Part shown: positions 23,659 through 37,881 of the stretch, piece after piece
Position numbering within the stretch: the stretch's first letter is position 1
Layout: every line of letters starts with the position of its first letter
Assembly (NCBI GenBank): GCA_044892505.1
Contig: CM097884.1
Coordinates: forward strand, 17,298,001 to 17,362,000
Length of the DNA stretch: 64,000 nt
Direction: 5' to 3'
Source: Schmidtea nova
Taxonomy: Eukaryota
Translations under genes and position numbers: made by a program
The notes under the pieces: model-generated
Told to the model about the DNA's origin: nothing
The model's input: the letters and a program-made list of their open reading frames with translations, nothing else
Database searches by the model: none

Positions 23659-24222
23659 TTATTGTTTATACAAATAGTTCATAACTCGCACTGGATTGGA
23701 CTGGTTCTGTGGAATTGCTGGTAACTCGTATTGGGTTCGTATTCTGTTGAACTGATTTCTCATTTGTCTTCGGGCATTGTCATCGTATGCTGTTGTTTGA
23801 TTGATGATCGATTGTTTTTGTTTTAGGATCTTTATTCTATATACTGCGATGAGAATGGTAATTGCGCAGGTTGTTGTACTAATTGTTAATACGATTATAA
23901 TCGCAACGATCCATCTCTCTTGGTATTGAATTTCTGCTCGATGTAAATTCTTTATAGTTTCTTTACTTTCTTTTAAGGTTTTTCGAATCTTCTCTAATTT
24001 GTTATTGATTTTGCACAGGGTTTGTTGCGTTGATACTGGGTTAGGTGCTGTTGACAATTGAATTTGAGATATTTCTTTGATTGCTTCTTTTAATAGATTA
24101 TCTATTTCTTTATAGATTTTTTCGGGTAAGACTTGTAGGTTTTCTTTTAATATCGGACGGTCTTCTCTTTGTTGGGTGATTTCGATTACGTTTAGGATTA
24201 TTAGTATTACGAGCTTCTTCAT
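23659..24222 (-). CDS. 187-aa putative type I membrane protein (signal-like N-terminus, coiled coil, TM)
   Basis: MKKLVILIILNVI N-terminus, amphipathic middle, TM WIVAIIIVLTISTTTCAITILIAVY followed by RIKILKQK. Last ORF before the 3' LTR. Confidence 0.7.
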   Translation of the reverse strand: MKKLVILIILNVIEITQQREDRPILKENLQVLPEKIYKEIDNLLKEAIKEISQIQLSTAPNPVSTQQTLCKINNKLEKIRKTLKESKETIKNLHRAEIQYQERWIVAIIIVLTISTTTCAITILIAVYRIKILKQKQSIINQTTAYDDNARRQMRNQFNRIRTQYELPAIPQNQSNPVRVMNYLYKQ

Positions 24223-24298
24223 TTCACTTTACAAATTTGTCAATACAGTTTGACATTGTTATGTTACAGATATTTACAAATATTTTTCGCACTTCTTT

Positions 24299-25402
24299 TT
24301 AAACTAACGACTCATTGGGTTCGTGAAAACCTTCATCTTGAGGTTCCACTTGGTTTGTAGGGGGTGGTAACCACACTATCGTGTTTCTCCACATTGTTAC
24401 TTCATCTCGATAGAAGTGTGACAATTGAATTTCTTCGTCTAACAGGTATTCTAAATAATTTGATTGTTCTGTTAACGCTTCGATCTGTTTTTCTAATTCT
24501 GTTATTTTATTGTTTTTCTCTTCCTCTTCCATCATTTTTATTACTGCTTTGGTGATATCTGTCTCTTTTGGTGGTGTTAATTTTTGTATCAATTTTTGTT
24601 TCAACTCTTCATTTTCTTTGGTTAGATTTAATAAATTTTCCTCATAGCTTTGTTTTGCTTCTTTTAATTTTAATAAATTTTCTTCATAGCTTTGTTTTGC
24701 TTCTTCTAATCTTTCTTTAGTTTTCTTTAATTCTATCTTCTTTTGAGTGATTACTCCTTGATAACCATTAATATCGCGCTTCATATCTTCCTCTTTCTGC
24801 ATCCCTGCTCTGAGGTTTGCATCGGATTGTTGTTTACTGAAATATAATTCTCTTTCCGATCTTTCAATCTGGTGCATAAGTTGTTTAATTTTTCCTGCTT
24901 GCTCTCTGATGAATTGTTGTCTCTTTATATTCCATTTCTTGCTCGATATTTCCTGATAGGTTTTCTGTTCTAATTCCTCTTTTAATTTATCGATTTCTTC
25001 AAATAACTTCCAATCATCGCTGTACGCCGTTCTTTCGATTATTTCTCTTGCTTTCGTATAAGATTCTTTCGCTTCTTTTTTCCAATATCTTGCTTGCTCG
25101 GTAATGGAGTACATTTTCCGTTCCATTTCTGTTCGTTCTCGCTCTCTTTCTTCTCGTCGTTCTTTCATCATCTTTTTATAATATTCTTTTTGTTTCTCTA
25201 ATAATTCATATAATTCGTCTATTTTATCTTGACTTAATCGCTTTAATCTTTTGGCTTCTGTTATTTGTTCGGCTTGTCTTTCTACTTCTTTTTGTTTGTG
25301 GTAATATGCGTGGATCCAACTTTTAATTTGTTCTAAATGCTCACAAATAACTTCATCTTGATGTTCGGTTACTTCTTGTAAACTGATTTCGACGTTTCCC
25401 AT
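24299..25402 (-). CDS. 367-aa long coiled-coil protein
   Basis: Intact E/K/Q-rich heptad-like ORF with an internal 14-aa duplication (EAKQSYEENLL x2); no recognisable catalytic motif. Confidence 0.75.
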   Translation of the reverse strand: MGNVEISLQEVTEHQDEVICEHLEQIKSWIHAYYHKQKEVERQAEQITEAKRLKRLSQDKIDELYELLEKQKEYYKKMMKERREERERERTEMERKMYSITEQARYWKKEAKESYTKAREIIERTAYSDDWKLFEEIDKLKEELEQKTYQEISSKKWNIKRQQFIREQAGKIKQLMHQIERSERELYFSKQQSDANLRAGMQKEEDMKRDINGYQGVITQKKIELKKTKERLEEAKQSYEENLLKLKEAKQSYEENLLNLTKENEELKQKLIQKLTPPKETDITKAVIKMMEEEEKNNKITELEKQIEALTEQSNYLEYLLDEEIQLSHFYRDEVTMWRNTIVWLPPPTNQVEPQDEGFHEPNESLV

Positions 25403-25506
25403 TTTCTATAATTACAAATATTTTCAATCAGGCTACTTTTATTATTTTGTTTATTTATCATTTTATATTGTTTTGTACAGTTTATTTACACGATCATTTT
25501 CTCTTG

Positions 25507-34845: not shown

Positions 34846-35218
34846 TGCTAAATAATTGATATTGTTAATATGTTTGCTGTTTTATTTAGTATATAAAAAA
34901 ATAAAGATTTCAATATCTTGTTTCTCTATTTGTTCAATTTGTGTTGGTCAAAAGTAGTGGTACATTTCGTTTTCTGATGTTAAACCTCTCCCTGTTTCAT
35001 CAAATTGTCGTCCCGACATATTTATTTATGTTTATTTATTTTATTTTAATATCAATTATTAATCGTCTGTTGTTATATTTATTCAATAGTTGTTTTTCAA
35101 AATTCTCTGTTGATATTGTTTTCACTTTTATACAAAAATCAATTATGTTTTCGGCTGAGGGGCACTTTAAAACTCCTGGTTATTATTGGATTCAATTTTT
35201 CGCACAAAAACCAATTTG

Positions 35219-35236
35219 ATCCCGGCTGAGCCCCCA
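35219..35236 (-). promoter_or_regulatory. Primer-binding site, tRNA-Pro
   Basis: Minus strand TGGGGGCTCAGCCGGGAT, 6 nt from the predicted LTR end; differs at 2 of 18 positions from the classical tRNA-Pro PBS TGGGGGCTCGTCCGGGAT. Confidence 0.85.
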
Positions 35237-35242
35237 AATTTA

Positions 35243-37881
35243 TGTTGTTGGTTTCGGATTGGGTTAAAACAAAATAGTAAATTAAACTAATAATTATTTT
35301 TAAACGCTCTAGGGATTCCTCCATCCAAAACCTCACATAAAATGCTTACATATCACACGAGCACCCTCGATCATTTCCCTATAATAATCGAGTTGGAAAT
35401 GTGCAAGGTGTTTGAACAATGATGGGCAGGTGAGCTCTATTGCTAAAACTACTCCCCATTTATGTTCACGGGTTCGTCTCGCTGCCGATAGAAGGACTTA
35501 CGCTTAAATTTTAATCTATCCGCATCCATTTATCTGTCATCTCAATTATCTCTTTTCGCCCCCTTTCGTTACAATATATTTCAACTTTCAACTTTCTTTC
35601 AGCCCCCTTCTTTACAATATCAACAAATAATATTTTTACGATATGTTATTTCTTTAATGCTATTATTGTTCATTACTTTGTGTCAATCTTTTATTTATAA
35701 TCTACCTTTAATTTAATTTAGAAATCCCTTAATAAAATACTTTAGTTCATATACTTTACAATAAAATAAATACAAAACAAAAATTATTTAATAAGCAAAA
35801 TTTACAAATCACAAAATTTCTAATCAAAATATTTAGAAATGTCTTCATCTGATATTGTAAAATTCATGTTCAAATCAATTTCTGGAATGTTGTTTGATCG
35901 TTGTGCCAATTGCTGGAGAACTTGTTTCTTCCAGCGACGCTGACGCGCGCCCATCTTACTCTTCTTTTTCTTTTTGACTTCTGGAATTATTACGTCCTTT
36001 GGTGTGATTGAGGCCGCCGTTGCTTGAACCTGAGATGGTTCCTCTGTGCTTGTTCCTTTTGAGCATCCTGCCTTTTCGTCAGCCCAATGCTGGTAAGTGA
36101 TTGGTCGAATGAGCTGGCTGAGCTCTTGAGTTAGATATGATGCCGTTACAGATTTTAGGCATTTCTTTAATTCCATCTTCGTTGCGTCCAATTCCATTTG
36201 CAGTTCGCTGTTAGCTCGCTGTGAGCGTTGAGTTTTGGTGATTTGCATTTTCATTTGGTCTGGACTGAACCAGCTTTTCTTTAGGTTGGAAATTATTCCA
36301 TCGGCTTCTTTTATTTTCTCTGACTTTCGCAGCATTTCCTTTTCCAGGCTGCGAATTATTCTCCAGGCTTTGTCTAATTCGGCTTGATTGGTTGCTGTGT
36401 TTGCTGACATTTTCTAAAATTCAAAATGGTTTATTGACATGAAGTTAGTAGTCTTGATTCGAACGATTCTCATACCTTTGACAATTGGTAATTGTTAATT
36501 TAGGAAAAGAAAATGATGTACCTATTACGCTTTCAACACTGTCGCTATGTACAGCGATCAGATACATTTATGTCATAATATGTTTTATTTCCACCTGTGC
36601 TATATACAGCAATCAGGTTACAAAATTATTTAAATAAACTAAGATCCGCTGCCCTATGTACAGGGTTCAGGATAAGCAATTATATTTAATTATTTAGGTG
36701 GACTGTTTGATCCTATAGCCTATTGCTGCTATGTTACTTGCGTAGTAGATCACTACGCTATTAAATTATCGATTTTTATGTTATTGTTAAAATTACATTT
36801 TGTACAAATTCTTAACCCTGCATCTGCCGCTCTATGCCCACAAACCCCAGATGTGACAATCGAAAAATATAGATTCACTCTCTGTGAATTCGAAAGAAAA
36901 TCAGGTTAATCAAATCGTAGTTACGTCTGTATCCAACTAGAATCAAACTCTATTCAACTATAAACTCATGAAAAACTAAATCGGTTAGAAAATAAAACTT
37001 CAACTGGTTATACTATCCAGTGAAAAATAGGGTTAAAAATCATGGTTAAATAAAAATTCCTACCCTCGTCACGGCGCTTTACACCGGTCGGACGGCCTAA
37101 CTGTACGGAGCAGTCGTTTCTACTCGGCACAGTATGCCTCCATGTTCCCGATTGCACGGTGAACGGAGCCCCTTAAATCATACGTAATTTTATACTATAA
37201 ATACGGTATATAGATAATATATATTCGCCTCCTTCCACTGATTTCACAGTGGAAGAAGCTTGGTTTAATTCTATACTCGAAAAAAAATTTAAAAATCATA
37301 TATCATAAAATATTTTATTAATAATTAACTACAATGGTCAATGACAGATAATCATAAAATTTATAAATTCAATAAACAAAAATACTCATACCTTTCAAGT
37401 TCTGTTCAAATATCTTTCAGTATCAAATAATCACAAGATCATAAAATCATAAAAGCATAAGCATATATTTTAACTGAATCTGGATCAGTATATATACTGA
37501 TCAGATCAGATCACTGACCAATCAGCTTGAAGCTGATGGTCATCAATGCAATTCTATTAAAATCAAAAATCGATTTTATTAATAAATATGATTTGCATTT
37601 TCTGGTTTTAATTTATCGAATTTTTATTAATTCTTCTTCTTTTTTACTTATTTATTTCGCTTTCTTATTATTTAAATATAATTAAATATCATTTTCTTTA
37701 ACGTTTTTACATTATACATTTATTTTCTTCCAATTTTTTTATATTAAATTAATATTCTTTATTACATTTTAATTCGTTTTTACTGATATTTTCATAATTA
37801 TATTTATTTTAATTTATTCTTATTTTCTCTCTTATTATTATTATTTTTTATGCTAAATGTGGACCAAATGGTGGATCCAAC

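Follow-up and report, generated by a model that had tools for sequence, protein, structure and literature searches.

Conserved acceptor-like and donor-like sites point to probable spliced expression of the open reading frames in a Burro-like retrotransposon of Schmidtea nova

We analyzed a stretch of 64,000 nucleotides from Schmidtea nova (assembly GCA_044892505.1, contig CM097884.1, positions 17,298,001 to 17,362,000; here referred to as the window), for which a preliminary description had noted AG dinucleotides resembling splice acceptors shortly upstream of several open reading frames (ORFs). All seven AG sites are carried by one long terminal repeat (LTR) element of 17,054 bp on the minus strand, which by its architecture is a Burro-like Ty3 LTR retrotransposon, Burro1-4 being compared by description only. 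Judged from the sequence, the layout of acceptors and donor is a real and selected feature. We propose, with about even confidence, that each ORF obtains a separate mRNA by cis-splicing from an LTR leader to alternative acceptors, combined with leaky poly(A) sites. The Burro-like identity, the probable AUU start of Gag and the UGUA-rich spacers reported below were absent from the preliminary description.

Four families of the element were compared, namely A (that of the window), B with ~71% DNA identity to A, C with ~28-50% protein identity, and one decayed copy of a family D. The seven AG motifs were found on the minus strand where the preliminary description had placed them, six ahead of ATG starts (G of each AG in Table 1) and one, at 32181-32180, ahead of Gag. 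The AAG/GTATGAG sites named there, with GT at 37391 and 36475, were located likewise. Acceptor and donor matrices were derived from 40 candidate introns in host myosin genes, identified by paralog alignment, of which 29 were kept (alignment margin of at least 9; two overlapping doubtful calls dropped). As decoys we used shuffles of each start's own 60-nt upstream region, scored at three matrix settings including one of 12 nt.

A host-like acceptor context, defined as the 80th decoy percentile or above, was present at five of the six window ORF starts as compared with 18 of the element's 303 other ATGs. Against the shuffles, the six starts of each family gave Fisher p values of 5e-7 to 7e-6 (A), of 2e-5 to 3e-4 (B) and of 7e-5 to 2e-4 (C) over the three matrix settings. 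Four of the seven window AGs rank among the first 11 of 1,278. In families A, B and C, each of the 18 orthologous accessory-ORF starts has an AG 1-8 nt upstream, and 12 of these starts reached the 80th decoy percentile with the 12-nt matrix. Since synonymous sites are near saturation between A and B (pS 0.62-0.83), the retention of the AGs implies selection. At the acceptor of the LTR ORF the T at -5 was kept in 110 of 111 matching LTR copies, and a branch-point-like TACTAAC lies ~37 nt upstream. The only downstream ORF without an acceptor is a polyprotein tail orphaned by a deletion. Conservation in three families together with the host-trained matrix thus supports the view that the AGs are selected, acceptor-like sites tied to ORF starts. 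The AGs ahead of the six ORFs exceed chance, but the site at 24222 is weak, with a score no higher than that of its decoys (50th-74th percentile).

Two starts involved a choice. The TRAF start of family A was taken as ATG 26862, the second in frame (first 26886), while in B and C the first ATG stands directly behind the AG. The LTR ORF of family C was read from a copy with its first ATG behind the AG; in a second copy an ATG occurs earlier.

A bare AG at this distance is common in the element (155 of the 303 other ATGs), and one is likewise present just upstream of the ATG in two single-exon TRAF frames of the host. Chance, or relics of captured host genes, could therefore be considered, with a functionless TAG-aaa-ATG arising from the AT-richness of the spacers, TAG stops in frame and AAA as start context. 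This is very improbable in our view: all 18 starts were conserved despite the near-saturated synonymous sites, CAG and out-of-frame TAG versions exist, and unrelated ORFs share one common spacer layout.

The LTR provides a matching donor. An ATTGG...AGTATA(A/T)ATACTGA arrangement was kept in fixed frame in A, B and C, and 88-141 nt behind the TATA box each of these families has an AG/GTA followed by T-rich sequence at the beginning of the intron, scoring at the 94th-99.7th percentile of decoy GTs. Six variants of family A were 95-100% identical to the window in the promoter, 50-73% in the leader and 72-97% on the donor side. A variable leader between a fixed promoter and a fixed donor is the pattern expected of a non-coding first exon. 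Of the nine family-A LTRs read, seven have GTATGAG at the second donor-like site, 36475, and two of the nine have the AG/GT form; no counterpart was noticed in B or C. The 62-nt intron it would bound is of host-typical length (host short introns 43-67 nt), and the site may be a minor second donor. Of the two LTR donors suggested previously, 37391 is accordingly the one conserved behind the TATA box in A, B and C, and 36475 was seen only in A. A GTAAG-like site near 35502, in the conserved block at the 3' side of the LTR, was discarded as a candidate for the major donor, its GT being absent from family D. Within the putative first intron, three CTGTA(C/T)ATAG motifs occur at 36662, 36608 and 36553 (minus strand), 54-55 nt apart.

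A major donor near the cap and an acceptor before each accessory ORF, as in complex retroviruses, are thus both present at the level of sequence. We favour cis-splicing over trans-splicing since the latter needs no conserved cis donor. Of the two mechanisms offered in the preliminary description, cis-splicing gains support from the conserved donor at 37391; trans-splicing of a spliced leader (SL) is possible but less likely.

The Gag acceptor differs from the others in what follows it. Behind it no ATG was found in 512, 516, 483 and 458 nt of the four families (3.1-4.7 expected, P 0.001-0.017), as compared with 10-16 ATGs in the same lengths upstream. In 14 of 14 copies of the four families an in-frame stop is followed after 3-6 codons by an A..ATT G motif, and no second context of this type occurs within the Gag extension of 98-150 codons. 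The ratio of nonsynonymous to synonymous substitution (dN/dS) of this N-terminal extension was ~0.25-0.45, a rough value given its low complexity. The ATG-free stretch and the conserved in-frame A..ATT G point to a probable AUU start, with the acceptor marking the beginning of the scanned region. The Gag polyprotein would then probably start at AUU 32111, which places its N-terminus ~100-150 residues upstream of the first Met.

According to the proposed scheme, Pol II would start ~20-30 nt behind the TATA box and the unspliced RNA would serve as genome. One short leader exon ending at the 37391 donor would be joined to 36414, 34848, 32180, 27297, 26865, 25406 and, weakly, 24227, and each splice would put its ORF first in the message. 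On the Gag message, scanning would proceed across the ATG-free stretch to the AUU. The 3' ends would be formed at leaky AAUAAA signals behind the LTR and RING ORFs, at UGUA-marked sites of the CFIm type in the 3' spacers, or in the 3' LTR. In seven of nine cases the stop of an LTR or RING ORF is followed within 45 nt by AATAAA or ATTAAA, each alone not significant; the RING ORF, whose AG is kept in B and C, has an AATAAA no more than 10 nt from its stop in all three families. The adenovirus major late unit similarly combines one promoter, a shared non-coding leader, alternative acceptors and alternative poly(A) sites. Adenovirus is a DNA virus with a tripartite leader, and the likeness is an analogy only.

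Several observations weigh against this scheme. Upstream ATGs in the leaders of A and C, one of them in strong context in C, would hinder scanning, and the 3' acceptors lie more than 20 kb from the donor in full-length copies. The RING, Gag and 187-aa sites rank only 200, 161 and 196 of 1,278; the site of the 187-aa ORF is weak in A and B and that of the RING ORF in C. Three family-specific extra LTR ORFs were found, of which one has an AG and two (family B) have none within 8 nt. The families share ancestry, so the p-values are not independent, the host matrix is small (29 introns) with degenerate host signals, and in the decayed copy of family D only the Gag acceptor and the ATT were recognised. 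Furthermore, planarian poly(A) signals were reported without upstream UGUA (PMC5068929).

Reverse-copied spliced RNAs were not found either. Occasional reverse copying might be expected of a spliced RNA that retains the primer site. Among the 111 matching LTR copies none was intron-less, the sole non-T at -5 being a point variant, and a pattern search for non-T at -5 gave no processed copy at three cargo acceptors (0 matches). Searches with DNA spanning two of the acceptors scored the best 40 of 407 and the best 40 of 370 candidates, all of them full-length. Four sequencing runs of unknown kind over 20850-32850 contained no minus-strand GT-AG among the 15 joints listed of 32; these runs behave as DNA (30 of 30 bins covered, spacers included) and are thus uninformative on splicing.

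The four spacers of the 3' cluster, 71-122 nt in A-C, share one layout: stop, a UGUA pair, an A-rich stretch, UGUA, AG and ATG. In the window the stop-to-ATG gaps are 122, 95, 104 and 76 nt, in agreement with the spacing of ~75-120 nt given before. AATAAA occurs in two of the four window spacers, again as described. Its use as an argument for 3' cistron ends fails, since its frequency in A-C (five of 12 spacers) is at chance level (shuffle P 0.32-0.83). In contrast, 11 of the 12 spacers have a TGTAHATA at 15-21 nt after the stop codon (shuffle P ~0.01 each). A second TGTA follows at short distance in all 12, and the spacers contain 44 TGTA in total as compared with 6.7 expected. UGUA is recognised by CFIm25, and UGUAHAUA corresponds to the Pumilio element; a CFIm25-type gene is present in the genome. 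Any of five planarian poly(A) hexamers (taken from PMC5068929) was found in eight of the 12 spacers. Spacer 1 additionally contains, at 27370-27335, a GCAT(T/A)ACCG...GTATGGGTAT block conserved in A, B and C, which folds only weakly.

This layout invites a mixed mode, in which the LTR donor serves the 5' acceptors only and the four 3' ORFs are freed by cleavage in the spacers and SL trans-splicing at the next AG. We regard it as a tentative alternative of rather low probability. The 3' TRAF, coiled-coil and membrane-protein genes would then form an SL operon with UGUA-marked cleavage, beside cis-spliced RING and AUU-initiated Gag messages, a picture that is possible though unlikely to the same degree. 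Co-oriented genes, gaps of ~100 nt and an acceptor before each downstream ATG are present as in SL operons. The size and uniform layout of the spacers match the flatworm-operon peak of roughly 100 nt (PMC8629364), and the intercistronic median of S. mansoni is 99 nt (PMC12582326). Parasitic flatworms often share acceptors between cis- and trans-splicing, and planarian SL RNAs are cited as well (both PMC12582326). Moreover, no 20-kb intron would be needed. On the other hand, the acceptors are not without an upstream cis donor, the LTR donor being conserved; with this donor more than 20 kb from the 3' cluster in full-length copies, the objection weighs less there. Flatworm SLs end in AUG (PMC12582326), yet this AUG would be in frame at only seven of 18 AG-to-ATG distances, as by chance, and at the Gag acceptor it would open a short upstream frame before the conserved AUU. 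The hexamer count of only eight in 12 spacers also speaks against an operon, and limits on genome size likewise predict compact spacers.

The spacers might also be short introns, or the ORFs cassette exons, with the GTAAATA 15-21 nt behind the stop as donor and the ORFs joined for reinitiation or skipped to a common 3' exon. The GT-to-AG spans of ~41-99 nt overlap those of host short introns, GTAAAT occurs among host donors, and spacer 1 of all three families has GTATGG/GGTAT ~60 nt ahead of the AG. We consider this unlikely. Even the best GTs of the spacers score no higher than the 60th-87th percentile, compared with the 94th-99.7th of the LTR donor. The T at -1 never varies, and each spacer holds 2-6 copies of TGTA, so that a protein-binding motif fits better than a donor. 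Besides, TGTA lies within 25 nt of the AG in 10 of 12 spacers as compared with two of 29 host introns.

Slightly less credible still is a mini-promoter in each spacer, by analogy with the internal promoter of foamy viruses or the packing of DNA viruses. Here YAG would belong to an initiator or to the start context, and TGTAAATA would be a DNA site of Forkhead type. GTAAATA, which resembles a Fox site, would fit, as would TATA-like sequences, namely TATAAAA in the first spacer of B and C and TATATA in the second spacer of A. TGTAHATA is strand-specific (eight sense and no antisense occurrences in the window's element, albeit on an A-rich strand), the distance from TGTA to AG varies from 7 to 17 nt, and the 5' untranslated regions would be just 1-8 nt, all of which is unfavourable to promoters. 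The conserved LTR donor and Gag acceptor would be left unexplained.

The assignment to the Burro-like class agrees with the LTRs, the primer-binding site, the target duplication and the MATH/TRAF and RING cargo. All six related LTR pairs confirmed the LTR ends, and every pair has a target duplication of 4 bp; for the window's element the 3' flank is masked. The primer-binding site is presumably of the tRNA-Pro type. The order of ORFs is the 196-aa LTR ORF, RING, Gag with CCHC knuckles, polyprotein tail, 111-aa, TRAF-like, 367-aa and 187-aa ORF. As the LTR-ORF ATG (36410) lies inside the LTR, ORF and acceptor recur at 21996, and the 3' LTR repeats promoter and donor as well. The 3' cluster has at least 37 genome copies at 96-100% identity (37 scored of 876 candidates).

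Relatives carry open polyprotein frames of 5,100-5,160 codons. In a piece of family B the order is PF24664 (mononegavirus-like fusion), PF00077 (protease), PF00078 (reverse transcriptase), PF17917 (RNase H), PF00665 (integrase) and PF12796 (ankyrin). The giant polyprotein of the Burro-like class is therefore found in the family, not in the window's copy. MATH/TRAF is located inside the polyprotein in family D and forms an accessory ORF in A-C. For BIR, BCL2-like, SUMO-like and dUTPase-like motifs no Pfam match was obtained in the pieces scanned, which included no whole polyprotein; some of these Burro motifs were found by HHpred alone (PMC6431247).

The polyprotein of the window's copy is cut short by an internal deletion. 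In the window and seven other copies the deletion junctions are microhomologies of 4-23 nt, none of them GT-AG. The window's copy is a deletion derivative without pol and env and would move only in trans. A 381-aa ORF considered as an eighth cistron was rejected: given the 10.7-kb deletion it is the orphaned tail of the polyprotein, consistent with its missing acceptor. Internal deletions of ~3.0 and ~5.4 kb at microhomologies recur and are common to several copies, so deleted sublineages have themselves spread.

The accessory ORFs are, as estimated from sequence divergence, under purifying selection, with dN/dS 0.06-0.26 in the four that could be estimated. Protein searches gave no homolog of the 367-aa ORF at E<=0.001 and no match of the TRAF ORF at E<=1e-20. 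The features are listed in Table 1.

Table 1. Features of the Burro-like element (window coordinates; G, position of the G of the acceptor AG)
Feature	Positions	Strand	Remarks
5' LTR, TG...CA, 2,640 bp	35243..37882	-	2 differences from 3' LTR over unmasked length
CCAAT-like ATTGG (37522-37518) and TATA box (37496-37489)	37489..37522	-	putative promoter role
Putative non-coding leader exon	37392..37475	-	hypervariable, short upstream ORFs; probable start ~37475-37465
Major donor-like site AAG/GTATGAG, GT at 37391	37385..37394	-	rank 14 of 556 GTs in element
Second donor-like site, GT at 36475	36469..36478	-	would bound 62-nt intron to LTR-ORF acceptor
LTR ORF, 196 aa, with acceptor (G 36414)	35820..36420	-	AG rank 2/1,278
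Primer-binding site	35219..35236	-	motif common to families A-D
RING-finger ORF, 153 aa, with acceptor (G 34848)	34384..34855	-	PF13920 E 1e-11
Tandem arrays, 41-46 nt units, in 5' untranslated region	32860..33800	-	
Gag acceptor tttttaatttAG	32180..32192	-	T-rich AG kept in A, B, C, D
AAA ATT G, probable Gag polyprotein start (ATT at 32111)	32108..32114	-	148 codons before first Met (31667)
Truncated Gag polyprotein, CCHC knuckles	28386..32111	-	PF00098 E 5e-11
Junction of internal deletion	28473..28481	-	10,733 nt lost at 9-nt microhomology, not GT-AG
Orphaned C-terminal polyprotein tail, weak fn3, hydrophobic segment	27416..28481	-	no acceptor
Spacer 1: stop, TGTAAATA and TGTA, conserved block, acceptor (G 27297)	27297..27415	-	AG rank 1/1,278
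Coiled-coil-like ORF, 111 aa	26958..27293	-	dN/dS 0.14 vs family B
Spacer 2: UGUA repeats, AATAAA, acceptor (G 26865)	26865..26957	-	AG rank 11/1,278
TRAF-like ORF, 451 aa (zf-TRAF, MATH)	25507..26862	-	PF22486 E 2e-21, PF02176 E 5e-8; dN/dS 0.14
Spacer 3: UGUA repeats, three AATAAA, acceptor (G 25406)	25406..25506	-	AG rank 10/1,278
ORF of 367 aa, coiled-coil-like by composition	24299..25402	-	no Pfam family; dN/dS 0.06
Spacer 4: UGUA repeats, weak acceptor (G 24227), no AATAAA	24227..24298	-	AG rank 196/1,278
ORF of 187 aa, hydrophobic N-terminus, transmembrane-like segment (sequence reading)	23659..24222	-	dN/dS 0.26
3' LTR	20829..23468	-	masked from 20847, end position taken from 5' LTR

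Burro/GYPSM1 are giant Ty3 (gypsy-like) retrotransposons of dugesiid planarians (PMC6431247) and rank among the largest LTR retrotransposons. Like the element described here they have multi-kb LTRs and tandem repeats in the 5' region, and like family B they encode a polyprotein of ~5,100 aa with Gag-CCHC, a mononegavirus-like fusion protein between gag and pol, protease, reverse transcriptase, RNase H, integrase and ankyrin (PMC6431247). The window copy differs as a 17-kb deletion derivative without pol or env. In addition, the Burro accessory ORF is located upstream in that review (PMC6431247), whereas here TRAF lies 3' of the polyprotein in a four-gene cluster. The excerpt of PMC6431247 contains nothing on the expression of Burro accessory ORFs, and in the literature searched we found no account of Burro elements being spliced, trans-spliced or initiated at AUU; the primary Burro papers or their supplements may cover Burro transcripts. 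One Burro element was reported to protect planarian stem cells via an accessory IAP (as cited in PMC13465017), and BURRO1 RNA increases upon smedwi-2 knock-down (PMC8532177). Conserved and exact candidate junctions for the expression of such accessory ORFs are now defined.

In foamy viruses, too, the major donor lies within the LTR, ahead of its poly(A) signal (PMC3694450). Foamy and complex retroviruses produce subgenomic mRNAs with small non-coding leader exons (PMC7828637), here predicted from sequence, and complex retroviruses carry accessory ORFs 3' of env and in the LTR. Unlike in complex retroviruses, Gag, Env and Pol form one polyprotein here, with Gag probably AUU-started, and six to eight non-overlapping ORFs are led by acceptors, some with a poly(A)-like signal of their own. 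Foamy accessory genes use an internal promoter, unlike in the cis-splicing scheme. Flatworm and nematode SL operons resemble the 3' cluster in their co-oriented genes ~100 nt apart with an acceptor just before the start codon (PMC8629364, PMC12582326); they differ in that a conserved cis donor lies upstream here and the unit is a mobile element. If cis-splicing is correct, a Ty3 element would have independently reached the gene-expression complexity of complex retroviruses. If SL addition is correct, this would be a retroelement operon, in which an LTR retroelement hijacks host trans-splicing.

Some further features of the LTRs were noted. A stretch of ~200 nt near the 3' end (35513-35309; 21099-20895) is 74% identical between A and B, unlike the rest of the LTR, and its CCTTCTATCGG motif is present also in C and D. 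It had no Rfam match and is possibly a structured packaging or reverse-transcription element. Directly before the 3' LTR (23499-23469) a conserved GCGGGACGCAATTTT...CCCCGAGT motif was found in A-D, which is not a plain polypurine tract. The LTR variants look mosaic, as the first 680 nt (37882-37210) are 78-88% identical to the window and internal regions 94-97%. Families B and C differ in the ORFs of their LTRs and have extra ones, among them a second RING ORF in B.

The element is flanked by a host hairpin repeat with an ATT microsatellite (38013-38121 and 20547-20645, partly masked). In the Rfam scan the only sub-threshold hairpin matches were in the element flanks. Similar host hairpin repeats occur near 7900, 8660, 10800, 12100 and 48200. 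At 16-750 the window contains a reverse-transcriptase fragment of another element (PF00078, E 1.4e-4). Finally, host TRAF/MATH genes form a large cluster on genome sequence C2 at ~405-455 Mb, partly in tandem units of 4-5 kb and separate from the many element-borne TRAFs.

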